From Escherichia coli (GTDB lineage: Bacteria; Pseudomonadota; Gammaproteobacteria; Enterobacterales; Enterobacteriaceae): a DNA stretch of 64,000 nt. Shown here one piece after another: positions 2,443-40,133 of this stretch (position 1 is its first letter; the number at the start of each line of letters is the position of its first letter). The stretch lies in NCBI RefSeq assembly GCF_044324785.1, contig NZ_CP172127.1, one strand, 5' to 3'. The translations under genes and the position numbers were made by a program. The notes under the pieces were generated by a model. It made no database searches and was not told the origin of the DNA. It saw only the letters and a list, made by a program, of their open reading frames with translations.

Positions 2443-3663
2443 GTGGTTGCTGAAAACCAGCCTGGGCACATTGATCAAATAAAGCAGACCAACGCGGGCG
2501 CGGTTTATCGCCTGATTGATCAGCTTGGTCCAGTCTCGCGTATCGATCTTTCCCGTCTGGCGCAACTGGCTCCTGCCAGTATCACCAAAATTGTCCGTGA
2601 GATGCTCGAAGCACACTTGGTGCAAGAGCTGGAAATCAAAGAAGCGGGGAACCGTGGCCGTCCGGCGGTGGGGCTGGTGGTTGAAACTGAAGCCTGGCAC
2701 TATCTTTCTCTGCGCATTAGTCGCGGGGAGATTTTCCTTGCTTTGCGCGATCTGAGCAGCAAACTGGTGGTGGAAGAGTCGCAGGAACTGGCGTTAAAAG
2801 ATGACTTGCCATTGCTGGATCGTATTATTTCCCATATCGATCAGTTTTTTATCCGCCATCAGAAAAAACTTGAGCGTCTGACTTCGATTGCCATTACCTT
2901 GCCGGGAATTATTGATACGGAAAATGGTATTGTACATCGCATGCCGTTCTACGAGGATGTAAAAGAGATGCCGCTCGGCGAGGCGCTGGAGCAGCATACC
3001 GGCGTACCGGTTTATATTCAGCATGATATCAGCGCATGGACGATGGCTGAGGCCTTGTTTGGTGCCTCACGCGGGGCGCGCGATGTGATTCAGGTGGTTA
3101 TCGATCACAACGTGGGGGCGGGCGTCATTACCGATGGTCATCTGCTACACGCAGGCAGCAGTAGCCTCGTGGAAATAGGTCACACGCAGGTCGACCCGTA
3201 TGGGAAACGCTGTTATTGCGGGAATCACGGCTGCCTCGAAACCATCGCCAGTGTGGACAGTATTCTTGAGCTGGCACAGCTGCGTCTTAATCAATCCATG
3301 AGCTCGATGTTACATGGACAGCCGTTAACCGTGGACTCATTGTGTCAGGCGGCATTGCGCGGCGATCTACTGGCAAAAGACATCATTACCGGGGTGGGCG
3401 CGCATGTCGGGCGCATTCTTGCCATCATGGTGAATTTATTTAACCCACAAAAAATACTGATTGGCTCACCGTTAAGTAAAGCGGCAGAAATCCTCTTCCC
3501 GGTCATCTCGGACAGCATCCGTCAGCAGGCCCTTCCTGCGTATAGTCAGCACATTAGCGTTGAGAGTACTCAGTTTTCTAACCAGGGCACGATGGCAGGC
3601 GCTGCGCTGGTAAAAGACGCGATGTATAACGGTTCTTTGTTGATTCGTCTGTTGCAGGGTTAA
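2443..3663 (+). CDS. mlc: ROK-family global repressor Mlc (DgsA)
   Basis: 406-aa ORF, probable GTG start, ROK family with Cys-rich zinc motif (CYCGNHGCLE). Confidence 0.9.
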   Translation: MVAENQPGHIDQIKQTNAGAVYRLIDQLGPVSRIDLSRLAQLAPASITKIVREMLEAHLVQELEIKEAGNRGRPAVGLVVETEAWHYLSLRISRGEIFLALRDLSSKLVVEESQELALKDDLPLLDRIISHIDQFFIRHQKKLERLTSIAITLPGIIDTENGIVHRMPFYEDVKEMPLGEALEQHTGVPVYIQHDISAWTMAEALFGASRGARDVIQVVIDHNVGAGVITDGHLLHAGSSSLVEIGHTQVDPYGKRCYCGNHGCLETIASVDSILELAQLRLNQSMSSMLHGQPLTVDSLCQAALRGDLLAKDIITGVGAHVGRILAIMVNLFNPQKILIGSPLSKAAEILFPVISDSIRQQALPAYSQHISVESTQFSNQGTMAGAALVKDAMYNGSLLIRLLQG

Positions 3664-3787
3664 CATTTTTTAACTGTTCTACCAAAATTTGCGCTATCTC
3701 AATTTGGGCCAGGAAAGCATAACTTAGACTTTCAAGGTTAATTATTTTCCTGGTTTATATTTGTGAAGCATAACGGTGGAGTTAGTG

Positions 3788-4483
3788 ATGCTGAAGCGTT
3801 TCTTTATTACCGGTACAGACACTTCTGTAGGGAAAACGGTGGTTTCCCGCGCATTGCTACAAGCGTTAGCCTCCCAGGGAAAAACGGTTGCGGGATATAA
3901 ACCCGTAGCGAAGGGGAGCAAAGAGACACCCGAAGGGCTGCGTAATAAAGATGCCCTGGTGTTGCAGAGTGTTTCAACCATCGAACTGCCTTATGAAGCA
4001 GTTAATCCTATCGCGTTAAGCGAAGAAGAAAGTAGCGTGGCGCACAGTTGCCCAATCAATTACACCCTCATTTCAAACGGCCTGGCAAACCTGACCGATA
4101 AAGTCGATCATGTCGTGGTAGAAGGGACTGGCGGCTGGCGCAGTCTGATGAATGATTTGCGTCCGCTCTCTGAATGGGTGGTGCAGGAACAACTGCCGGT
4201 ATTGATGGTTGTCGGTATTCAGGAAGGTTGCATTAACCATGCACTACTAACAGCTCAGGCGATTGCCAACGACGGGCTGCCGCTCATTGGCTGGGTGGCT
4301 AACCGAATCAATCCAGGACTGGCGCATTATGCGGAAATCATTGATGTGCTGGGTAAAAAACTTCCGGCACCGCTCATTGGTGAACTGCCTTATCTGCCGC
4401 GCGCCGAACAGCGTGAACTGGGGCAATACATCCGCTTAGCTATGCTTCGCAGTGTGCTGGCGGTAGATAGAGTCACGGTGTAA
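3788..4483 (+). CDS. ynfK: dethiobiotin synthetase paralog (BioD-like)
   Basis: P-loop GTDTSVGKT near N-terminus; start taken at MLKRFF to give 231 aa. Confidence 0.85.
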
Positions 4484-5886: not shown

Positions 5887-6501
5887 CTATCGAAAGAGTG
5901 GTTTAACCGCGACAGGAATTAACAGTTGTGATTGCCATTGCGCCAGCGTTAAGCGAGCCAGTTCACCCAGTGCACGGTAGAAAGGGTGTTCTGCTTTTTC
6001 GATAAAAACGTCAAGAAAACGTGTTGACCACGGAAAAAGGTGCCATGCCAGCAATTCTTCGCATTCTGTCTGGCGACCATTCTCCGCCAACCACGCAGCC
6101 ATCAACAGCAGTGAACCAAAATGATCTTCCGGTTCGTTTTGCTTCATTTCAAACTGAATGCCTTTCTCGCGCATCCACTGACGAAGTGCCAATGTTGAAT
6201 CGCCAAACAGCACAGATTCGCGATCCAGCCAGACCGATCCCCACGGCGGTGACGGCAGTGCCCACGGGCCGACAAACAAACGCTGCCAGGCCTGGGCGTG
6301 AGTCTCTTCACTCTGTGTCTGAAAAGCCGTCACCAGCGGCGCTAATGACGCTTCTGGTAGAGGCCACTGAGTTTCCCAGCCGTCACGGGTGAGTACCGCA
6401 ACCAGGGGGGCGGCTTCCGCACTCTCTGGAGCGTAATAAAACAGCGCGCCCAACACGCGCGCCGCGACAGAAAAATTATCTTGCTGTGAAAAATGGGTCA
6501 T
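5887..6501 (-). CDS. dmsD: Tat proofreading chaperone DmsD
   Basis: Begins MTHFSQQDNFSVAARVLGALFYYAPE, matches recalled DmsD; lies downstream of ynfEFGH. Confidence 0.9.
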   Translation of the reverse strand: MTHFSQQDNFSVAARVLGALFYYAPESAEAAPLVAVLTRDGWETQWPLPEASLAPLVTAFQTQSEETHAQAWQRLFVGPWALPSPPWGSVWLDRESVLFGDSTLALRQWMREKGIQFEMKQNEPEDHFGSLLLMAAWLAENGRQTECEELLAWHLFPWSTRFLDVFIEKAEHPFYRALGELARLTLAQWQSQLLIPVAVKPLFR

Positions 6502-6543: not shown

Positions 6544-7398
6544 TTAACCTGCAATAGCCATTCCTACCGTCATGTGCAGGCCATAAAAGAGCACACGCCC
6601 GATCATCTCACCGCCAAGTATGAGGATTAGCCCCAGAACAAGTCCGGCAACGTGAGGTTCACGGCGACGAATGAGCGGACAAAGCCAGCATCCTAGACCT
6701 GCGCATAACAATACCACACGCCAGACCTGTAAGGAGGCGTAATCTGGTACCAGTGCGCTGGCTTGTTGTACGGATGAGTGAATAGACGCCAGAGACAAAC
6801 CTTGCAGCACAATCACCCCGGCACAAGCGATCAGCGCCAGAACGCTAATGATGGCAAATGGTGTGGTATTAAATGTAACGCGGGCTGCCCGCAGAATTGC
6901 GGCAGCAAGTATTGGACCACTCAATAATACTGTCAGGAAGAAAGCCAGCGTAGTGTAACCGTTATGCCAGGTTGGCACAGTGTCGATTTGATACACGCCG
7001 GTCATCATCCAGACGAAAATGACGCCGAGCGCCATGCTGACAAGTAACCAGAGTTTCCCCAACGCTTGCGGCATTTTACCGATGACCGCCACCAGCCACC
7101 ATAATCCGCCAACGGCAAAAAATATTGAACCGGCAGCAATCTCGTTACTCAGACCAGAAGCACCGATTCGATTCAGCGAGTTAAACGCTCGCAGTGGCGA
7201 TCCCAGGTGCATGACAGAGGCAATAAACCCGATGCCCATCAACAGCCAGAGGAAAAACATGCCACGAACAATGTGCTGACGGTCTGCGTCATTTTTGGCG
7301 GCGAACCAGCCAATTCCGCTAACAATCAGCGCGCCTACTACGCATTGACCCAATACGGTAAAGATAACCAGTGGCCATTCATGCCATCCATTTCCAAT
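6544..7398 (-). CDS. ynfH: DmsC-type membrane anchor subunit of the YnfEFGH oxidoreductase
   Basis: Hydrophobic polytopic ORF directly after ynfG; start codon uncertain because no ATG sits at the expected 284-aa start. Confidence 0.75.
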   Translation of the reverse strand: MGNGWHEWPLVIFTVLGQCVVGALIVSGIGWFAAKNDADRQHIVRGMFFLWLLMGIGFIASVMHLGSPLRAFNSLNRIGASGLSNEIAAGSIFFAVGGLWWLVAVIGKMPQALGKLWLLVSMALGVIFVWMMTGVYQIDTVPTWHNGYTTLAFFLTVLLSGPILAAAILRAARVTFNTTPFAIISVLALIACAGVIVLQGLSLASIHSSVQQASALVPDYASLQVWRVVLLCAGLGCWLCPLIRRREPHVAGLVLGLILILGGEMIGRVLFYGLHMTVGMAIAG

Positions 7399-7399
7399 T

Positions 7400-8017
7400 T
7401 TACACTTCCTCCGGATTAGCCAGATAACCAGTGGTATCGCCGGTCGGGCGGCTGTTGGCGTTAGGTTTGATAACGATATTGGGTTTTGTGAAATGCGCGC
7501 GCGGCAGTGGCGCGACGGCAGCCAGAGTGCCGTACTTCTGGCGCAGCTCTTCAATTGGACCGAACTCAAGTGCACGCAGCGGGCAGGATTCGACACATAT
7601 GGGTTGTTTCCCCTCGGCGACGCGCGAATAACAACCATCGCACTTCGTCATGTGCCCTTTTTCAGCATTGTACTGTGGCGCGCCGTACGGACAAGCCATG
7701 TGGCAGTAGCGGCAGCCGATACAAACATCTTCATCAACCACCACAAAGCCATCTTCACGCTTATGCATTGCGCCGCTGGGGCAGACTTTTGTACATGCGG
7801 GGTCATCGCAATGGTTACAGGAGATGGAGAGATAATAAGCGAACACGTTCTGGTGCCAGACGCCATTATCTTCCTGCCAGTCGCCGCCAGCATATTCATA
7901 AATACGGCGGAAACTGACTTCCGGGCCAAGATCTTTAAAATCTTTGCACGCCAGTTCGCAGGTTTTACAGCCAGTACAGCGGCTGGAATCGATAAAAAAT
8001 CCATATTGTGTGGTCAT
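7400..8017 (-). CDS. ynfG: 4Fe-4S ferredoxin-type subunit (DmsB-like)
   Basis: 205 aa with four CxxCxxCxxxCP clusters. Confidence 0.9.
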   Translation of the reverse strand: MTTQYGFFIDSSRCTGCKTCELACKDFKDLGPEVSFRRIYEYAGGDWQEDNGVWHQNVFAYYLSISCNHCDDPACTKVCPSGAMHKREDGFVVVDEDVCIGCRYCHMACPYGAPQYNAEKGHMTKCDGCYSRVAEGKQPICVESCPLRALEFGPIEELRQKYGTLAAVAPLPRAHFTKPNIVIKPNANSRPTGDTTGYLANPEEV

Positions 8018-8027
8018 GGGCTACTCC

Positions 8028-10454
8028 TTAAACCTTTTCGATCTGGACAAGATTGCTGTGCGACGGGTTTCCCTTTGCCAGCGGTGAAGGGCGGTGAGAG
8101 GTCAGAATATTAATACTGCCGCCGTGATCGACCCGGTCACCAAACATATCCGCTTTAAGCCACGCACCTTGCCCGATGGCGGTAACGCCAGGCAGAATAC
8201 GCGGAGTCACTTTTGCGGCAATCAGCATTTCTCCATTATTGTTAAATACCCGCACGGTATCGCCATGACGGATACCGCGTGCCTGAGCATCAATAGGGTT
8301 GATCCACACCTCTTGTGGGCAGGCCTGCTGTAACACATCAATATTGCCGTAGCTGGAGTGGGTACGCGCTTTGTAGTGGAAGCCCGTTAACTGCAGTGGA
8401 TAGGTTTTCCGCAGGGGATCGTCCCAGCCATCAAAACCTGGGGTATACGCAGGAAGGGGATGAATAATTTCATCTTTTTTCAATTCCCAGGTATCCGCAA
8501 TCGTCGCCAGTCGTTCAGAATAAATTTCGATTTTCCCCGAAGGTGTTTTCAACGGGTTTGCCTGTGGATCTTCACGGAATGCGCGGAAAGCGACGTAGTG
8601 TTCTTCCGGGCATTTTTTCTTAAAGATCCCGGTCGTTTTCATCTCCTCGTAGTCGGGCATCTCAGGGTTACGTTCCTTCGTTTTCGCATGGAGATATTTG
8701 ATCCATTCGTGCTGACTGCGGTCTTCAGTAAAGGTTTGATAAACGTCTGGTCCTAAGCGTTTGGCGACTTCGCTCAGCATCCAGTAGATGGGTTTGCGTT
8801 CAAATTTTGCTGAGGTTGCGGGTTGGGCGAGGATCACATAGCCCATATTCCCGGCAGATTCGTGAGAGATAAGGTCTTCTTGCTCTGTTGGCATCAGGTC
8901 GGGCAACAGGATATCGCAATACTTAGCCGAGGCAGTCATGAAGTGGTCAATGCCAACAATCATCTCGCACTTGCTGTCATCCTGAAGCACCTCATGGGTG
9001 TGATTGATGTCGCCATGTTGATTGATCAATGTGTTACTGGCGTAGCACCATAAAAACTTGATGGGGACATCCAGTTTTTCTTTTCCACGAACACCATCAC
9101 GGGTCGCGGTCATTTCCGTACCGTGGTCGATGGCATCTGTCCATGTAAAGACGGAAATCTGCGTTTTAACAGGATTCTCGAGCATCGGGAACCATTCTAC
9201 CCCCAGATCCCAGCTACCTTCGCGTACACCTGAGTTGCCGCCGTTTATGCCGACGTTACCGGTGAGAACGGAAAGCATGGCAATAGCGCGGGACGTTTGC
9301 TCGCCGTTGGAGTGTCGTTGTGGCCCCCAACCCTGACAAATATAAGCAGGTTTTGCTGAACCGATCTCTCGTGCCAACTGGATAATTTTTTCTGCCGGTA
9401 TGCTGGTGATTTTTGCTGCCCATTCCGGCGTTTTAGCTATGCCGTCAGGCCCTTCGCCCAGAATATAGGCTTTATAATGCGCGTTACGTGGTGCGTTGGC
9501 GGGCAGCGTTTTTTCATCGTAACCAACACAATATTTGTCGAGAAATGGCTGATCGACCATGTTTTCAGTAATCAGTACCCAGGCAATCGCACAGGCCAGT
9601 GCGCCATCGGTGCCTGGGCGAATTGGCAGCCATTCATCTTCACGCCCGGCAGCAGTGTCGTTATAACGTGGATCGATGACGATCATGCGTGCGTTTGAAC
9701 GTTCTCGGGCTTGCTCGACGTAGTAAGTGACACCACCGCCGCTCATCCGGGTTTCTGCCGGGTTATTTCCGAACATAACGACCAGTTTCGTATTGGCGAT
9801 ATCATCCGGGCTGTTGCCATCATTGGCACCGAACATATAACTCATTGCGGCACTGATCTGTGCGGTACTGTAGCTACCATAGCGACTGAGAAAACCACCG
9901 CAAGAGTTCATCAGACGGTACGGGACGTTTGAGTTGGTGATGTTTCCGCCATCTACGCCTGTTCCGTACAGGACATGTACAGCCTCATTGCCGTAATCTT
10001 TTAGGATCCGCCGAAGATTATCACTGATGGTATCCAGGGCTTCGTCCCAACTTATCCGTTCAAATTTACCTTCACCGCGCTTGCCGACGCGCTTCATGGG
10101 ATATTTCAGCCGATCAGGATGATTCATCCGTCGGCGGATAGAGCGCCCGCGTAAACACGCCCGAACCTGATGATTACCGTAAACGTCGTCACCTGTCGTA
10201 TCAGACTCCACCCAGTACACAGTGTCATCTTTCACATGCAAACGTAACAGACAGCGGCTCCCGCAGTTAACGGTGCAGGAACTCCAGACCGCTTTCTCTT
10301 CTACCGGTGCCTCTGCCGCTCGGACCATTTGGGAAAATGGCAGAGTGAAAGCACTGCTTGCCAGCGCGAGACTGCCAAGTGCGGAGGTTTTCATCAGACT
10401 TCTACGGCTGATTTCAGCCTTCATGAGCGCCTCTGTGGTATGGAATTTCATCAT
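8028..10454 (-). CDS. ynfF: molybdopterin oxidoreductase catalytic subunit (DmsA paralog)
   Basis: 808 aa, twin-arginine signal SRRSLMK, molybdopterin oxidoreductase family; tandem paralog of ynfE. Confidence 0.9.
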   Translation of the reverse strand: MMKFHTTEALMKAEISRRSLMKTSALGSLALASSAFTLPFSQMVRAAEAPVEEKAVWSSCTVNCGSRCLLRLHVKDDTVYWVESDTTGDDVYGNHQVRACLRGRSIRRRMNHPDRLKYPMKRVGKRGEGKFERISWDEALDTISDNLRRILKDYGNEAVHVLYGTGVDGGNITNSNVPYRLMNSCGGFLSRYGSYSTAQISAAMSYMFGANDGNSPDDIANTKLVVMFGNNPAETRMSGGGVTYYVEQARERSNARMIVIDPRYNDTAAGREDEWLPIRPGTDGALACAIAWVLITENMVDQPFLDKYCVGYDEKTLPANAPRNAHYKAYILGEGPDGIAKTPEWAAKITSIPAEKIIQLAREIGSAKPAYICQGWGPQRHSNGEQTSRAIAMLSVLTGNVGINGGNSGVREGSWDLGVEWFPMLENPVKTQISVFTWTDAIDHGTEMTATRDGVRGKEKLDVPIKFLWCYASNTLINQHGDINHTHEVLQDDSKCEMIVGIDHFMTASAKYCDILLPDLMPTEQEDLISHESAGNMGYVILAQPATSAKFERKPIYWMLSEVAKRLGPDVYQTFTEDRSQHEWIKYLHAKTKERNPEMPDYEEMKTTGIFKKKCPEEHYVAFRAFREDPQANPLKTPSGKIEIYSERLATIADTWELKKDEIIHPLPAYTPGFDGWDDPLRKTYPLQLTGFHYKARTHSSYGNIDVLQQACPQEVWINPIDAQARGIRHGDTVRVFNNNGEMLIAAKVTPRILPGVTAIGQGAWLKADMFGDRVDHGGSINILTSHRPSPLAKGNPSHSNLVQIEKV

Positions 10455-10511
10455 TACTCACTTATTGCTTTTCAAACAAAATGTCATGCCAGAATTTATG
10501 GTTGTAGTGGG

Positions 10512-12938
10512 TTATATTTTTTCGATCTCGACCAGATTAGTGTGCTGCGGGTTTCCCTTCGCCAGTGGTGAAGGGCGCAGAGTGGTTAGCGTATTCACAC
10601 AGCCGCCGTGGTCGATTTTATCGCCAGACATATTGGCCTCGTGCCAGGCTCCCTGACCCATAGCGCTAACTCCAGGAAGAATGCGTGGTGTCACTTTGGC
10701 TGGTAGCCGAACTTCGCCACGATGGTTAAACACCCGCACCATATCGCCGTTGGCAATCCCACGTTTCTGTGCATCTATAGGGTTGATCCACACTTCCTGA
10801 CGGCAGGCTGCCTTCAGGACATCAATGTTGCCGTAGGTCGAGTGAGTACGGGATTTGTAATGGAAACCAAACAGTTGCAGTGGGAAGGTACTACGTTCAG
10901 GGGAGTCCCAGCCTTCAAAGGTTGAGGCATAAACCGGCAGTGGGCTTATCACTTCATCTTTTTCCAGTTCCCAGGTACGGGCAATTTCCGCCAGCTTGCT
11001 GGAATAAATTTCAATCTTACCGGAAGGCGTTTTAAGTGGATTTGCCTCGGGGTCGTCACGAAATGCTTTGTAGGCGACAAAATGACCATTGGGATCTTTA
11101 CGCTTATAGATACCCATTTTTTTCAGTTCGTCGTAAGACGGTAACGCCGGATCTTTGGCAAGCATTTTGGCGTACAGATGTTGTAACCATTGTTCCTGCG
11201 TGCGACCTTCAGTGAACTTTTGATAGACGTCAGGTCCAAGACGTTTCGCGACTTCACTCAGGATCCAGTAAATCGGTTTGCGTTCGAATTTTTCGCTGGT
11301 GACAGGCTGGAGGAAAATGAGATATCCCATGTTACCGGTGTAGTCGTTAGGAATAATATCTTCCTGCTCAACGGTCATCAGGTCTGGCAGCAGAATGTCG
11401 GCATATTTTGCCGATGAGGTCATAAAGTTTTCGATGACCACAATCATTTCGCATTTCGATTCGTCCTGCAGAATTTCATGCGTTTTGTTGATGTCAGAAT
11501 GCTGATTAACCAGGGTATTTCCCGCGTAGTTCCAGATGAACTTAATGGGCACATCCAGTTTATCTTTGCCCCGGACGCCGTCGCGGATTGCCGTCATTTG
11601 CGGGCCATGATCGATAGCATCCGTCCAGCTGAAGCAGGAGATTGACGTTTTGACCGGATTATCAAGCACCGGCAGGCGTTCTATGGTAATGGTATAGGTC
11701 GATTCACGCGCGCCACTATTCCCGCCGCTGATGCCGACATTGCCCGTCAGAATAGGCAACATCGCAATAGCGCGTGCAGTCAGCTCGCCGTTTGCCTGGC
11801 GTTGCGGTCCCCAGCCCTGGCAGATATAAGCGGGTTTTGCTGTGCCAATTTCACGCGCCAGTTTGATGATACGGTCCACCGGGATACCGGTAATTTGCGA
11901 AGCCCACTGCGGCGTTTTCGCTGTTTTATCGTCACCTTCACCAAGAATATAGGCTTTATAGTGACCATTTTTTGGTGCATCTGCGGGTAAGGTTTTTTCG
12001 TCATAGCCGACGCAGTATTTATCGAGAAAAGGTTGATCAACGAGATTTTCGTTAATCAATACCCAGGCAATACCCGCAACCAGCGCGGCATCGGTGCCCG
12101 GGCGAATAGGAAGCCATTCGTCTTCACGACCGGCAGCCGTATCGGTATATCGCGGATCGATAACAATCATTTTTGCGTTCGATTTCTCGCGCGCTTTTTC
12201 AAGAAGATAAGTGATGCCACCGCCGCTCATGCGGGTTTCTGCCGGGTTGTTACCAAACATCACGACCAGCTTGCTGTTTTCAATATCCGTGGTGCTGTTG
12301 CCATCATTACTGCCGTAGGTGTAGGGCATGGCACAGGAAATTTGCGCGGTGCTGTAGGAGCCATACTGATTGAGTGAACCGCCGTAGCAGTTCATCAGGC
12401 GTTTGACCGCCGAGGCTGATGGTGAAGAGCGGGTCATATTGCCGCCAACAATCCCCGAAGAGTACTGAATATATACAGCCTCATTGCCATATTGTTCGAC
12501 GGTTTTTTTCAGGCTACTGGCGATAGTATCCAGGGCTTCATCCCAGCTAATCCGTTCGAATTTGCCTTCGCCGCGTTTGCCCACGCGTTTCATTGGGTAA
12601 TTCAAGCGATCGGGATGATTAATACGCCGACGGATGGAGCGACCGCGCAAACAGGCACGTACTTGATGATTGCCATACTCGTCGTTGCCGGTGTTGTCAG
12701 TTTCCACCCAGGTCACTTCATTATCTTTAACATGCAGACGAAGTGCACAGCGGCTACCACAGTTGACGGAACAGGCACCCCAGACCACTTTCTCGCTGGC
12801 CTGTTGTACCGCTGCCGCTGCACTGCGCAGGGTGAACGGTAAAGAAAAACCGCCTGCAGCCAGCGCCAGAGAACCTATCGCGGTAGATTTAACGAGTGTT
12901 CTGCGGCTGATGCCCACCATTTGTTCATTTTTGGACAT
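10512..12938 (-). CDS. ynfE: molybdopterin oxidoreductase catalytic subunit (putative selenate reductase, DmsA paralog)
   Basis: 808 aa, twin-arginine signal SRRTLVK, highly similar to the adjacent ynfF. Confidence 0.9.
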   Translation of the reverse strand: MSKNEQMVGISRRTLVKSTAIGSLALAAGGFSLPFTLRSAAAAVQQASEKVVWGACSVNCGSRCALRLHVKDNEVTWVETDNTGNDEYGNHQVRACLRGRSIRRRINHPDRLNYPMKRVGKRGEGKFERISWDEALDTIASSLKKTVEQYGNEAVYIQYSSGIVGGNMTRSSPSASAVKRLMNCYGGSLNQYGSYSTAQISCAMPYTYGSNDGNSTTDIENSKLVVMFGNNPAETRMSGGGITYLLEKAREKSNAKMIVIDPRYTDTAAGREDEWLPIRPGTDAALVAGIAWVLINENLVDQPFLDKYCVGYDEKTLPADAPKNGHYKAYILGEGDDKTAKTPQWASQITGIPVDRIIKLAREIGTAKPAYICQGWGPQRQANGELTARAIAMLPILTGNVGISGGNSGARESTYTITIERLPVLDNPVKTSISCFSWTDAIDHGPQMTAIRDGVRGKDKLDVPIKFIWNYAGNTLVNQHSDINKTHEILQDESKCEMIVVIENFMTSSAKYADILLPDLMTVEQEDIIPNDYTGNMGYLIFLQPVTSEKFERKPIYWILSEVAKRLGPDVYQKFTEGRTQEQWLQHLYAKMLAKDPALPSYDELKKMGIYKRKDPNGHFVAYKAFRDDPEANPLKTPSGKIEIYSSKLAEIARTWELEKDEVISPLPVYASTFEGWDSPERSTFPLQLFGFHYKSRTHSTYGNIDVLKAACRQEVWINPIDAQKRGIANGDMVRVFNHRGEVRLPAKVTPRILPGVSAMGQGAWHEANMSGDKIDHGGCVNTLTTLRPSPLAKGNPQHTNLVEIEKI

Positions 12939-13136
12939 AACTCACTCCCTGTTCTTTATCGTTATATAAAAGTTTATATATTGAATATTTAGCGCGCTAA
13001 CAATAGAGGGAGTCTACCTATTTTGGGTTAAGAATTATTAATCCATATCAATAGAAGGGTATGAGTAATAAGGTGGGATTATGTTGTATGTTCAAATCGC
13101 CGGATGTGTCGTATCCGGCGTTCAGTCGATAATGTG

Positions 13137-18298: not shown

Positions 18299-19594
18299 TT
18301 AATTTTTCATTGCTTCGTTATGGGGCATGGTTGGGGCAAACTCGCTTAACTGTGTATTTAACAAAGCTACCTGTGCATTATTGTTTTCAGACATCCATTT
18401 TCCGTATACCTGAAATACCATTTGCGCATCTGCATGGCCCATCTGGTTTGCTATAAATGCCGGATTAGCACCAGCTGTCAGCGACCAGCAGGCATAAGTA
18501 TGTCTCGACTGATATGATTTTCGATGGCGGAGTCCGGCACGTTTTATCGCTGCGTCCCACATCTGCCTTATTGAGTCAACGGTAAAATGGTCACCATAAT
18601 TTTTTACTCTCGCTGACACTTCAGGTTGAAAAACAAAGGTGCATTTATGTTTTTCTGTTCTGCCATACTCTCTGAGGTGAACATCAATGATATGCTCTTT
18701 GCTCAGTCTCGTTAATGTCATCTGACTCCGGAGAGCGTCGATTGCTGGCTTAATAAGATGAATGACCCGATTGGTTCCCGCCTGTGTTTTTGGTACCGTG
18801 AAACGGTCTTTTGCTAAATTTCTCCTGATCATCATTGTTCCATTTTTCAGATCTATGTCCTCCCATCCAAGTGCACACAGCTCACCAGGGCGAACGCCAG
18901 TATAAACAGAAACACACCATAAATTTTTGGCTTGCTGATTTCTGCACGCATCGATAAGACGGATGAATTCCTCCCGCGAAAGAGGATCCGGAATGGTTCT
19001 TGATTCCTTTAATGGCGAGATCCCCTTAAACGGGTTATCTGCCAGGTAACCGTTATCAACACCAAACTGGAACACGGCGTTAAGATTTGTCATGTAATTA
19101 TTTACAGTTACAGCCGATCTCCCTGGTTGTGTAACAATATAGTTACTTTTGGGGATCTGGTATCCAGTCAGTAGCTCTTTACGAACCTCCAGTAATTTTT
19201 CTTTATTAATCGATGAGGCAAGATTTTTTTCACCGATTATGCTCAGGATATTTTTGATGACGGCACGGTATGTGTTGAGTGATGTTTTTGCGACTTCAGT
19301 TTCTTTCAGTGCCAGAAATTTTTCAGCCAGTTCTTTTATGGTTAAATCTTGTCGAGTCTCACCAAATTTTTCCAGATTGCGTGAGGAGGGAAACTGTTTT
19401 GCATAGTCGAAAACACCAGTTTTTATTGCGTAACAAACAGAGGCGCGTAGCTCACCTGCAACGCGCCTGTTTTTTGCTGTGTCAGGAACCCCCAGGTTTT
19501 CCCTGACTCTTACGCCTTTATAAACAAACCAGATACGTAATTTCCCTCCATGGTTTTCCACGCCTGTCGGATATTTCATTTCAACTTCTCTCAT
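18299..19594 (-). CDS. phage tyrosine integrase
   Basis: 431-aa ORF at the prophage edge with C-terminal catalytic region (HTYACW...VYGKW); true start may be a few codons in. Confidence 0.85.
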   Translation of the reverse strand: MREVEMKYPTGVENHGGKLRIWFVYKGVRVRENLGVPDTAKNRRVAGELRASVCYAIKTGVFDYAKQFPSSRNLEKFGETRQDLTIKELAEKFLALKETEVAKTSLNTYRAVIKNILSIIGEKNLASSINKEKLLEVRKELLTGYQIPKSNYIVTQPGRSAVTVNNYMTNLNAVFQFGVDNGYLADNPFKGISPLKESRTIPDPLSREEFIRLIDACRNQQAKNLWCVSVYTGVRPGELCALGWEDIDLKNGTMMIRRNLAKDRFTVPKTQAGTNRVIHLIKPAIDALRSQMTLTRLSKEHIIDVHLREYGRTEKHKCTFVFQPEVSARVKNYGDHFTVDSIRQMWDAAIKRAGLRHRKSYQSRHTYACWSLTAGANPAFIANQMGHADAQMVFQVYGKWMSENNNAQVALLNTQLSEFAPTMPHNEAMKN

Positions 19595-23055: not shown

Positions 23056-23108
23056 GGGCGGCAGAGCAGTCACGGAGTAAAACTGATACCGCCAAACGTC
23101 ACCAGAAA
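23056..23108 (-). ncRNA. dicF: DicF small regulatory RNA
   Basis: Minus strand reads TTTCTGGTGACGTTTGGCGGTATCAGTTTTACTCCGTGACTGCTCTGCCGCCC followed by a T-run, matching recalled DicF; lies between ydfC and dicB as in K-12. Confidence 0.85.
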
Positions 23109-28464: not shown

Positions 28465-29755
28465 ATACAGCGAACTCCATTGGTTTAGTTGGATATTTAC
28501 TGTGCTGGACAAAAACGGTTTGCGGGGAAATCTTAGTTAAGTAGAATGACTGCGGGTGCTTGAGGCTATCTGCCTCGGGCACGAACACCAACGGCAGGTA
28601 GAGAAAAGCCCCAGTTAACATTACGCGTCCTGCAAGACGCTTAACATTAATCTGAGGCCAATTTCATGCCAGACACATGTAGGTTAGCCTCTTACGTGCC
28701 GAAAGGCAAGGAGAAGCAGGCTATTGTTAACACCAAGCTGTAATGTCCCCTTTGAACCATTCTAAAATGTCCCCAGACAATTCTCTGGGGGATTTTTCAT
28801 GACCAAAGAAACTGTTACGATGAGTCATAAGGAACTCCACCGACTTCAGATTATTCAGGAGTCAATTAATCGACATATTACTCAGGAACAAGCTGCGGCA
28901 CGCATTGGCATTTCTATTCGGCAGGTTAAACGTCTGGTGCAACGGTATAGAAATGAAGGGCCTTCTGGTCTGGTTTCCCACCGACGTGGAAAGCGTCCTA
29001 ATAATTCCTTTTCTACTGAATTCAGAGCAACAGTAATTTTACTCCTCAAAGGCCGTTACGCTGATTTTGGACCTACGTTTGCGTGCGAAAAATTGCGCGA
29101 GATACACGGTTTATCTTTATCCGTTGAAACTCTCAGAAAGTGGATGATAGAAGAGGGGGGTATGGCGTGAACGCCGTCGTAAAATTGCCCGTATATATCA
29201 ACGCCGCATGCGACGACCATCTTACGGTGAACTGATCCAGATTGATGGCTCACCTCATGACTGGTTTGAAAATCGAGGCCCCAGATGTACACTGATCGTT
29301 TTCATTGATGATGCCACCAGTGCGTTGATGGCGTTGCGTTTTGTGCCTGCTGAAACAACCCGGGCTTACATGGAAACCCTCCGGGGTTACCTTAATGATC
29401 ATGGCGTACCGCTCGCTCTCTACTCTGATAGACACAGTATATTCAGGGTAAATAACCCAGAGCGGGAAGGTGAGCTGACCCAGTTCACTCGTGCGATAAA
29501 GACACTGGGCATCGAGCCAATCCATGCCAACAGCCCGCAGGCAAAAGGGCGGGTAGAGCGCGCCAATCAGACACTACAGGACAGGCTGGTCAAAGAAATG
29601 CGGCTTCAGAATATCAGTGATATTGAAACAGCAAATGCATGGTTGCCGACCTTTATTGAAGCCTATAACAACCGGTTCGCTACGTCGCCTCGTACTACTG
29701 ATAATGCTCATCTTGATGTGCACCATTCTGAAGAGGAACTGGGTTATATCTTCAG

Positions 29756-36525: not shown

Positions 36526-36825
36526 AAAAATTCCTTAATACTGATAACTTGGCGCACTATACACACGTTCCTGAAGAAAGCTATAGTTTTTTGATGGGGT
36601 TGAAGATGGCTGGATGTCTAAAATAAACATTGCTTCATATGTTCAACTATGCGTTAATGATTGCGTCGGTTTGAAGAACAGACGATATACGAAGTAGTTT
36701 ACTAAAGCAGTTCTCATTTCAGGTGTTATTCACTTATTCCTTCTTTGAGTCTCTCCAATTAAGTACGAAGTCGTTTCTGTTATGCAAACCATTTATGCCG
36801 AAAGGCTCAAGTTAAGGAATGTAGA

Positions 36826-37041
36826 ATGTCAAATAAAATGACTGGTTTAGTAAAATGGTTTAACGCTGATAAAGGTTTCGGCTTTATTTCTCCTGTTGAT
36901 GGTAGTAAAGATGTGTTTGTGCATTTTTCTGCGATTCAGAATGATAATTATCGAACCTTATTTGAAGGTCAAAAGGTTACCTTCTCTATAGAGAGTGGTG
37001 CTAAAGGTCCTGCAGCAGCAAATGTCATCATTACTGATTAA
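36826..37041 (+). CDS. cspB: cold-shock protein CspB
   Basis: 71 aa [23 protein letters not shown] with RNP motifs. Confidence 0.9.
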
Positions 37042-37322
37042 AATTCATCGCTCGTCTGTATACGATAACGAAGAAGGCTGATGCCTGAGTAGAGATACGG
37101 ACAGAGTAGTGAATATTGGATCTCTTTAATAAAAAGTAAGGAGGTCCAATACATGAAACAATGGCTAGCATATTTGGCAAAATCTTAATCAGGAAAAGTA
37201 TGCTAACCATTGTGGTGAAGTGCAGGTTTGCTGCATGAATAGTTTTACAGCAGAAGCTAACTGCTGGCATGGCAAAACAAAGTGCGTAAGTGGATGACTC
37301 CCACAAAAAGCACCACAATCTC

Positions 37323-39350: not shown

Positions 39351-39713
39351 GGTAATATTAAATCGGAACATTTACATCGCGGAATGTAAAATTTAAATAA
39401 AAAGGACTCTTCCATGAGCCAAAATTCCTGAAATCTTAAGGGTAAGATAAAAGGTCTTAATCAGAATGACACGTTATTATTAATAAATAAAGCTATTCTT
39501 TCATTGCTGTGTTTTTCTTTACAAAAGTAATCCTTGCTATGGGTGGTTAATCATGCGTTAATGGTGTTCTGGTTTGTTACAAATTTATCTGAAGCAGTCA
39601 TTGTTATAATTTTATTATTTGTACCTCTTGAGATTTCCTTGTTGGTTTTTCTCTCTGATATTTTTTTTCGGACCATTCTGCCCAAGGGCTAATTTCTTCA
39701 AAAGGTAATAATT

Positions 39714-39926
39714 ATGTCTAACAAAATGACTGGTTTAGTGAAATGGTTTAACCCTGAAAAAGGTTTTGGTTTCATCACGCCGAAAGATGGCAGCAAAGAT
39801 GTGTTTGTCCATTTCTCAGCAATTCAGAGCAACGATTTCAAAACATTAACTGAGAATCAGGAAGTTGAATTTGGTATTGAGAACGGACCTAAAGGTCCTG
39901 CCGCTGTTCATGTAGTGGCGCTTTGA
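39714..39926 (+). CDS. cspI: cold-shock protein CspI
   Basis: 70 aa [23 protein letters not shown]. Confidence 0.9.
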
Positions 39927-40133
39927 GGTAGACAATATTACAAACCATATTCACTTTAGATGCCCGTGTTGTCATGGTTCCCAGTATAGAACATCATCTT
40001 TTGATGTTTCTGACATGAATCCTTTCGGGGCAAAATGTATCTTTTGTAAATCAATGATGATTACATTTGATAATATTTCACAATACTTAAATGCCAGCCG
40101 TCTGTCGTTGGATTTAAAAAAGTGAAAATGAAG

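Follow-up and report, generated by a model that had tools for sequence, protein, structure and literature searches.

Tandem paralogous catalytic genes ynfE and ynfF in an ordinary Escherichia coli ynfEFGH-dmsD operon

The locus analysed here raises the question of why two catalytic genes stand in tandem upstream of a single iron-sulphur subunit and a single membrane anchor, how old the pair is, and whether both copies are still maintained. It lies on the minus strand of a 64,000-nucleotide stretch of DNA, which we call the window. A preliminary description of this DNA had reported two tandem genes for 808-residue catalytic (A) subunits, and two open reading frames are indeed found head to tail at 10512..12938 (ynfE, the first) and 8028..10454 (ynfF, the second), each encoding 808 amino acids from its first ATG. 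The shared length holds for the open reading frames, but the curated lengths are 808 for YnfE and 807 for YnfF. The ynfF frame opens with two adjacent ATGs, of which RefSeq and the K-12 annotation use the second (window 10451, so that ynfF becomes 8028..10451 with 807 amino acids); the in-frame ATG upstream of it, at 10452-10454, gives the 808-residue frame. Up to the curated start the two genes are separated by 60 nt (10452..10511), a spacer that includes the ynfF ribosome-binding region.

Downstream, the preliminary description had named one Fe-S subunit, one anchor and dmsD, and family matches bear this out. The start of ynfG (7400..8017, 205 amino acids) is 10 nt past the ynfF stop codon; its product, the single Fe-S (B) subunit, scores 265.6 bits on TIGR02951 (DMSO_dmsB; cut-off 214.1) and contains Pfam Fer4_11. 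The single membrane-anchor (C) subunit is encoded by ynfH (6544..7398, 284 amino acids), identified by annotation and by Pfam DmsC (E = 1.1e-126), and the Tat proofreading chaperone by dmsD, also called ynfI (5887..6501, 204 amino acids), identified by annotation, NF008632 (346.2 bits, cut-off 162) and Pfam Nitrate_red_del. Two tandem A genes, one B gene, one C gene and dmsD, all located between ynfD and clcB, are the composition of the ynfEFGH-dmsD operon. The surrounding 25 kb are collinear with annotated E. coli loci in three genomes, with the shared order ynfM-ynfL-mlc-bioD-clcB-dmsD-ynfH-ynfG-ynfF-ynfE-ynfD-ynfC-speG-ynfB-ynfA-rspAB. Of 5426 complete E. coli genomes searched by megablast, 5322 match the segment at their annotated ynfE/ynfF; even in the nearest of these the pair is only 99.1% identical. 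Compared with E. coli K-12 (b1587-b1591), order, orientation and flanks are alike, YnfE is 98.8% identical in amino acids and 97.7% in nucleotides (10 amino-acid substitutions), and YnfF 99.6% and 98.6% (3 substitutions). We therefore identify the locus, with high confidence, as the usual chromosomal ynfEFGH-dmsD operon of E. coli or a very close relative, with an old tandem pair that arose in situ.

The two catalytic proteins share 70.9% amino acid identity (566 of 801 positions in BLASTP, 71%, E = 0) and their genes 69.6% codon-aligned nucleotide identity, which is the pairwise calculation that had been proposed as a check. A repeat finder, run independently, picks up direct repeats over the whole span (period 2484-2496 nt, identity 70-78%). 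This similarity is far beyond chance, and the names ynfE and ynfF agree with the annotated loci. A self-BLASTP of all open reading frames of at least 100 amino acids returned no second paralogous pair beyond this pair's antisense shadows, in agreement with the description of this pair as the main chromosomal paralogy of the window. The pair is correctly described but ordinary: the operon, the paralogy, the Tat/DmsD dependence and the link to selenate and tellurate are already published, and the literature already terms YnfE and YnfF paralogous Tat-dependent catalytic subunits, so the duplication is a known one, as had been said. With the window copy intact and typical, the locus carries little weight as a discovery.

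The two copies can nevertheless be told apart by family models. On the NCBIfam models for selenate/tellurate reductase subunits YnfE (NF041885) and YnfF (NF041884), which have curated whole-protein cut-offs, the ynfE product (window 10515-12938, minus strand) scores 1796.9 bits (cut-off 1675) and the ynfF product (8031-10454, minus strand) 1772 bits (cut-off 1650), whereas the cross-scores stay below the cut-offs (1478.7 bits for the ynfF product on the YnfE model, 1478.2 for the ynfE product on the YnfF model). Both proteins contain the same three Pfam domains, PF04879 (Molybdop_Fe4S4), PF00384 (Molybdopterin) and PF01568 (Molydop_binding), and both exceed the threshold of 777.7 bits for TIGR02166, the DmsA/YnfE subfamily of the DMSO reductase family, with 1398.6 and 1281.8 bits. 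Neither is a DmsA orthologue. On the model for DmsA proper (NF011566, cut-off 1600) YnfE reaches 1346.3 and YnfF 1315.9 bits, and their identity to E. coli DmsA is 67.4% and 66.5%, respectively. The partner subunits differ in their closeness to the Dms system, YnfG being 93.7% identical to K-12 DmsB and YnfH 57% identical to K-12 DmsC. E. coli DmsABC resembles the window operon in its A/B/C architecture, domains, DmsD-served Tat leader and cofactor-binding residues, but dmsABC comprises a single catalytic gene, and dmsD is not linked to it. A sequence search of our copy of the PDB found only distant relatives of YnfE and YnfF, the best being Rhodobacter DMSO reductase (E = 5e-76), and no solved structure for either protein or for E. 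coli DmsA.

The motifs expected of such enzymes are present in both copies. A cysteine group of the form C-x3-C-x3-C … C, which we take as the motif of the FS0 [4Fe-4S] cluster, is found as C56-x3-C60-x3-C64…C96 in YnfE and as C59-x3-C63-x3-C67…C99 in YnfF. These groups, together with Ser196 of YnfE and Ser195 of YnfF, align with C63/C67/C71/C104 and S205 of DmsA; we take Ser205 (precursor numbering; Ser176 in the older numbering) to be the molybdenum ligand. The twin-arginine leaders that had been noted in both subunits are confirmed, with the motif G-I-S-R-R-T-L-V-K in YnfE (SRRTLVK, residues 11-17), followed by STAIGSLALAAGGFSLPF…AAA, and E-I-S-R-R-S-L-M-K in YnfF (SRRSLMK), followed by TSALGSLALASSAFTLPF…VRA. 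Both leaders thus have the features by which we recognised Tat substrates, namely S/T-R-R-x-F/L-x-K, a hydrophobic h-region and an A-x-A-type c-region. Window YnfE also keeps L24, A28, L33 and F35, the DmsD-binding face mapped in Salmonella YnfE (PMC5203670). The n-region of the YnfF leader is closer to DmsA than to YnfE, in our alignment as well as in PMC5203670.

How old is the duplication? The genes are tandem, in the same orientation, of equal length and separated by a short spacer, as might be expected of a recent duplication or of copies kept similar by ongoing gene conversion. Their divergence speaks against both. The nucleotide identity is no higher than 69.6%, synonymous substitution has reached saturation (pS = 0.71, dS about 2.2), no identical run exceeds 17 nt, and sliding windows along ynfE and ynfF show no high-identity tract, all being at or below 79%. 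The Salmonella enterica operon, which also has two tandem catalytic genes, shows the same 71% identity between them in the published figures (PMC5203670). We also built a distance-based neighbour-joining tree of 10 taxa from 725 ungapped columns, with 500 bootstraps and a plasmid-borne homologue as the root, in which window YnfE groups with Klebsiella YnfE, not with its neighbour YnfF, at 100% bootstrap. YnfE and YnfF together form a group, again at 100%, and DmsA falls in a separate clade with homologues from Proteus, Vibrio, Photobacterium and Aeromonas (93%). The tree thus places the split between ynfE and ynfF before the divergence of Escherichia and Klebsiella, and the duplication is old; the Klebsiella gene entered this tree as the full translation across its stop codon. 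On the sliding-window identity, the 17-nt run and the saturated dS we reject recent duplication and conversion, to which we assign next to no probability. The age of the pair, older than the Escherichia-Klebsiella split and without gene conversion, is a descriptive by-product of this analysis.

The Klebsiella comparison raises a different possibility, namely that ynfF was acquired horizontally: a ynfE-like gene of some related bacterium would have reached an ancestor shared by Escherichia and Salmonella and landed between ynfE and ynfG. In the one Klebsiella pneumoniae chromosome examined (CP125156.1) the flanks are alike (ynfA, ynfB, speG, ynfC and ynfD on one side; ynfG, ynfH, dmsD, clcB, bioD, mlc and ynfL on the other), but there is a single catalytic gene, 85.9% identical to window YnfE. 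It is followed directly by ynfG after 13 nt, and ynfF is absent from this syntenic position without a trace. The DmsA-like leader n-region of YnfF might also hint at a foreign source. Against insertion, the tree has YnfE and YnfF as sister lineages, with YnfF outside the DmsA clade. The Klebsiella evidence moreover comes from a single chromosome, whose ynfE-like gene itself carries a TAG at codon 297. Loss of ynfF in Klebsiella is the simpler reading because independent loss of ynfF is observed within E. coli, and we consider an insertion highly improbable.

Within E. coli, 546 of the 5426 complete genomes, ST131 strain EC958 among them, have ynfF as a pseudogene with two internal deletions, and ynfF is thus dispensable elsewhere. 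One might ask whether one copy in our genome, most plausibly ynfF, is likewise a functionless, redundant duplicate decaying towards a pseudogene. Its absence from the Klebsiella locus would fit such a decay, as would the small share of Salmonella YnfF in selenate reduction (PMC5203670) and a 2026 pangenome study in which ynfE and ynfF rank among the metabolic genes most frequently found as pseudogenes (PMC13322260). The window gene itself argues otherwise. It is full-length with every motif intact, its product scores above the curated YnfF cut-off, and it differs from K-12 by 3 amino-acid changes against 30 synonymous ones. The resulting dN/dS of 0.028 is below that of ynfE (0.061), and values this low indicate strong purifying selection on both window copies. 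The junction of the 580-bp deletion that marks the pseudogene lineage is also missing from about 90% of E. coli genomes. Decay of ynfF in this genome is thus very unlikely. Through these deletions about 10% of the complete E. coli genomes, with the ST131 reference EC958 among them, are natural ynfF knockouts, a point to bear in mind when ynfF expression or Ynf function is measured in the ST131 lineage.

The start of ynfF has a further feature of its own. Window positions 10451-10471, from -20 to the start codon of ynfF, are complementary to nucleotides 39-57 of the small RNA RyhB, which represses ynfF translation and the expression of a fusion carrying ynfF -60..+24 (PMC4666370). Over these -60..+24 positions the window differs from K-12 at 2 of 84. 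A duplex prediction with full-length RyhB was over-extended and uninformative, and a core-region test was used in its place. In this test the predicted RyhB-ynfF duplex has -20.8 kcal/mol, a value reached by 7 of 1000 shuffles; the margin over the 5' region of ynfE (-17.9 kcal/mol) is modest.

Published work gives these genes a function. YnfE and YnfF are described as paralogous Tat-dependent selenate reductase catalytic subunits (PMC5203670, PMC12724226, PMC12096835), and E. coli with ynfE and ynfF deleted (ΔynfEF) no longer reduces selenate (PMC12724226). In Salmonella most of this activity comes from YnfE and little from YnfF, DmsD binds the leaders of YnfE, YnfF and DmsA, and Tat/DmsD-dependent export is backed by genetic evidence there and for the E. 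coli orthologues, with DmsD-binding residues largely conserved between Salmonella and the window (PMC5203670). The published support for the reductase function of the orthologues is genetic, and according to the same paper no direct enzyme assay for YnfE or YnfF exists. Fujita 2021, as cited in PMC12096835, names ynfEF as selenate/tellurate reductase genes, and roles in S- and N-oxide repair have been proposed for the Ynf enzymes (PMC12096835). From this work on orthologues we infer the export route, chaperone binding and substrates of the window proteins. YnfE and YnfF would both be catalytic subunits of the DmsA/YnfE branch that face the periplasm, each with a bis-MGD molybdenum cofactor and, in its N-terminal part, a single [4Fe-4S] cluster. 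DmsD would bind the twin-arginine leader of the precursor in the cytoplasm during cofactor insertion, and the folded subunit, most likely together with four-cluster YnfG, would then be exported by Tat and dock on YnfH. YnfH would take electrons from menaquinol and hand them via YnfG to YnfE or YnfF, where selenate or tellurate would be reduced. With a single B gene and a single C gene in the operon, the likeliest arrangement, judged from gene counts, is two alternative heterotrimers, YnfEGH and YnfFGH, with YnfG and YnfH in common.

Within this scheme YnfE would be the main selenate reductase and YnfF a partly redundant isoenzyme under its own RyhB translational control. The separate RyhB control and the DmsA-like leader n-region raise the question whether YnfF is kept for a different substrate or condition, for instance an S-/N-oxide or an iron-dependent role, and is lost when that niche disappears. 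We regard this as possible but rather doubtful. If true, a role of its own could explain why YnfF, although repeatedly deleted, has been kept by strong purifying selection from a time before Escherichia and Klebsiella diverged, and the losses in ST131 E. coli and in Klebsiella would mark lineages whose niche is gone.

The operon promoter lies in the ynfD-ynfE intergenic region (12939..13136, minus strand), which differs from K-12 by 3 substitutions in 198 nt. A single FNR-type half-palindrome pair is present there, TTGATATGGATTAA at 13038-13051, with 1 mismatch to TTGAT-N4-ATCAA and none of the substitutions within it. The pattern occurs in the window at chance level (4 found against 3.0 expected), so we credit this candidate site only for where it lies and for being unchanged from K-12; FNR control of ynfEFGH is among the findings cited in PMC10845959. 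In a consensus scan for internal promoters and terminators, promoter-like sites were fewer than in shuffled sequence (5 against 9.3), terminator-like matches all lay inside coding sequence and none was called, and Rfam at the gathering threshold gave no RNA element between 5.6 and 13.6 kb. Two plus-strand open reading frames, 9360-9695 and 11991-12374, resemble each other and were rejected as genes, being antisense shadows of the ynfE/ynfF paralogy.

The locus belongs to the ynfEFGH-dmsD operon family, all of whose testable defining features it shows. Two tandem catalytic genes are found on the minus strand, each an ORF of 808 aa when read from its first ATG, with ynfE upstream at 10512..12938 and ynfF downstream at 8028..10454, at the bounds that the preliminary description had given them. 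Downstream of the pair lie the sole Fe-S subunit ynfG (7400..8017; TIGR02951, 265.6 bits against a cut-off of 214.1), the sole membrane anchor ynfH (6544..7398; Pfam DmsC, E = 1e-126) and the chaperone gene dmsD (5887..6501; NF008632, 346 bits against a cut-off of 162), again as described. The statement that both products have 808 aa is true of the ORFs but not of the curated lengths, which are 808 and 807 aa, because the RefSeq and K-12 annotation starts ynfF at the second (window 10451) of two adjacent in-frame ATGs (window 10449-10454). A Shine-Dalgarno-like GTGAG is found 2 nt from the first of these ATGs and 5 nt from the second, a spacing that agrees with the curated start. With this reservation about length, the description of the pair is accurate on all elements, but the pair was already known. 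The span 8028-12938 is matched by megablast in 5322 of 5426 complete E. coli genomes, with a best identity of 99.1%, and the annotation beneath all listed matches is selenate/tellurate reductase subunits YnfE and YnfF. The surrounding 25 kb is collinear with the annotated chromosomes of E. coli, with zero indels, in the order ynfM, ynfL, mlc, bioD, clcB, dmsD, ynfH, ynfG, ynfF, ynfE, and beyond these ynfD, ynfC, speG, ynfB, ynfA, rspA, rspB and a prophage integrase. For window 1-25000 the best match among complete E. coli genomes is 98.8%, and most genomes lie at 95%-99%. The window may thus come from a lineage that the complete RefSeq genomes of E. coli do not cover, for instance Shigella or an uncommon E. 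coli lineage.

The Pfam trio Molybdop_Fe4S4, Molybdopterin and Molydop_binding is common to YnfE and YnfF. With the NCBIfam models for YnfE, YnfF and DmsA (cut-offs 1675, 1650 and 1600), the upstream product scores 1796.9, 1478.2 and 1346.3 and the downstream product 1478.7, 1772 and 1315.9, respectively; each passes its own model alone, and both miss the DmsA cut-off. The twin-arginine leaders noticed earlier can be recognised as SRRTLVK in YnfE and SRRSLMK in YnfF; beyond the motif, each has a hydrophobic stretch and then a c-region rich in Ala. Both proteins also contain the Cx3Cx3C…C group for the N-terminal [4Fe-4S] cluster, and a serine (S196 in YnfE, S195 in YnfF) that aligns with DmsA Ser205 and which we take, from work on DmsA Ser176, to be the molybdenum ligand. 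A PDB search found no solved structure of YnfE, YnfF or E. coli DmsA, the nearest entries being Rhodobacter DMSO reductases and TMAO reductases.

The pairwise comparison proposed for the two copies, run as BLASTP, gives 566/801 identities (71%) and 85% positives (E = 0), and the codon-aligned nucleotide identity is 69.6%. An independent repeat finder detects direct repeats across the whole ynfE-ynfF span, with a period of 2484-2496 nt and 70-78% identity. It is fair to call this the main paralogy in the window, because self-BLASTP of all ORFs in the window with 100 aa or more yields no other paralogous pair, bar antisense shadows of ynfE and ynfF. A recent duplication, or gene conversion between the copies, was considered and rejected: pS is 0.71 (dS about 2.2) and pN 0.18, the copies are identical over at most 17 consecutive nucleotides, and identity stays at or below 79% in every 150-nt window, and therefore there is no sign of either. 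In a neighbour-joining tree (725 ungapped columns, 500 bootstraps), with outgroups drawn from chromosomes and chromids filed in the plasmid collection, the window YnfE groups with the Klebsiella pneumoniae YnfE-like protein (100% bootstrap) and YnfE with YnfF (100%), and the DmsA proteins of E. coli, K. aerogenes, Proteus, Vibrio, Photobacterium and Aeromonas form a separate clade (93%). These groupings indicate that the YnfE/YnfF split is older than the Escherichia-Klebsiella divergence, and by the same tree the ynf lineage is no recent copy of dmsABC. The pair is also present in Salmonella, likewise at 71% identity (PMC5203670). Relative to K-12, 46 synonymous and 10 non-synonymous changes are seen in ynfE (dN/dS 0.061), against 30 and 3 in ynfF (dN/dS 0.028). 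In the window each gene is intact, and each is under strong purifying selection.

Published work shows that DmsD binds the leaders of YnfE, YnfF and DmsA, and describes export by Tat with YnfG as the most likely passenger and YnfH as the quinol-oxidising anchor; in Salmonella YnfE is the main selenate reductase and the contribution of YnfF is small (PMC5203670). Selenate reduction is lost in E. coli ΔynfEF (PMC12724226), and tellurate reduction also requires ynfEF according to Fujita 2021, as cited in PMC12096835. By analogy with these orthologues, YnfE and YnfF of the window would be catalytic and dependent on Tat and DmsD. Because two A genes stand against one B and one C gene, we infer that two alternative heterotrimers are the likeliest arrangement, which would have YnfG and YnfH in common.

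In other lineages ynfF is dispensable. The syntenic locus of the one Klebsiella chromosome examined (K. pneumoniae CP125156.1, 7001-10064 of comparison locus L004) has the same flanks as the window and lacks ynfF; the only catalytic gene there shares 85.9% identity with YnfE, lies 13 nt upstream of ynfG and is interrupted by an in-frame TAG (codon 297). The ranked spread of megablast matches contains a block of E. coli genomes with only 83% query coverage. In strain 131, ynfF is a 1570-bp remnant, annotated 'frameshifted', without window 8110-8383 (274 bp) and 9158-9737 (580 bp), and the ST131 reference strain EC958 has the same pseudogene. When end-to-end matches of a 120-nt probe spanning the 580-bp deletion junction are counted, the deletion is found in 10.1% of the complete E. 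coli genomes (546 of 5426). In these genomes ynfF is a 1570-bp pseudogene with both deletions (as at 2501-4070 of comparison locus L013 and 5264-6833 of L014), beside which ynfE, ynfG, ynfH and dmsD are intact. A 2026 pangenome paper lists ynfE and ynfF among the most often pseudogenised metabolic genes (PMC13322260), and therefore the pseudogenisation of ynfF agrees with published work and is not new. It is conceivable, if rather doubtful, that YnfF acts on a different substrate or under a different condition; such a role, if true, would account for both long-term purifying selection and repeated lineage-specific loss.

Upstream of ynfE, the promoter region has 3 differences from K-12 in 198 nt and retains a predicted FNR-like site, TTGATATGGATTAA, at 13038-13051; that FNR controls the operon is reported in work cited in PMC10845959. 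RyhB translationally represses a ynfF -60..+24 fusion (PMC4666370); in the window this region shows 2 differences from K-12 in 84 nt. Pairing is predicted between ynfF -20 to the start codon (window 10451-10471) and RyhB nt 39-57 at -20.8 kcal/mol, a value attained in 7 of 1000 shuffles, compared with -17.9 kcal/mol for the 5' region of ynfE. These predictions lend modest support to RyhB pairing at the ynfF start.

Unlike dmsABC, the ynf operon has two catalytic genes and carries dmsD in cis, and its A subunits share 66-67% identity with DmsA. We also observed that the B subunits are closer within a genus than between orthologues (ynfG 7400-8017; dmsB L003 3915-4529; L004 9447-10061; L009 6411-7025, the last three on comparison loci). 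Protein identity is 93.7% between E. coli YnfG and DmsB (pS 0.73, synonymous sites saturated) and 96.1% between K. pneumoniae YnfG and K. aerogenes DmsB (pS 0.47), whereas the orthologue pairs reach 87.8% (E. coli and Klebsiella YnfG) and 90.2% (E. coli and K. aerogenes DmsB). Judged from these sequences, the pattern resembles concerted evolution or gene conversion of ynfG and dmsB, in Klebsiella at least. No comparable within-genus likeness is seen for the A subunits in the neighbour-joining tree.

A complete dmsABC-like operon, together with chaperone and ferredoxin genes, is found on many E. coli plasmids (for example at L011 4977-9990, on NZ_CP029181.1). Two ISKpn26 copies flank the set, and the operon adjoins P1-type phage genes (C1 repressor, antirepressor, Icd-like). 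The A subunit that it encodes shares only about 51% identity with YnfE. The 'plasmid' records CP125156.1, NZ_OL790812.1, NZ_CP141089.1 and CP054253.1 are 4-5 Mb long or chromosomal fragments and are truly chromosomes, and therefore the ynfE, ynfF and dmsA matches there are no evidence of mobility.

A lambdoid prophage occupies window 18299-64000, at the K-12 site of the cryptic prophage Qin. It starts with the integrase (18299-19579), followed by an excisionase, an exonuclease and then ydfD, dicB, ydfC, ydfB and ydfA; the genes for terminase, portal and capsid come later. Rfam matches within it are DicF (23056-23107, minus strand), sok (28554-28725, plus strand) and two cspA-type thermoregulator leaders (36665-37057 and 39568-39953, both plus strand).
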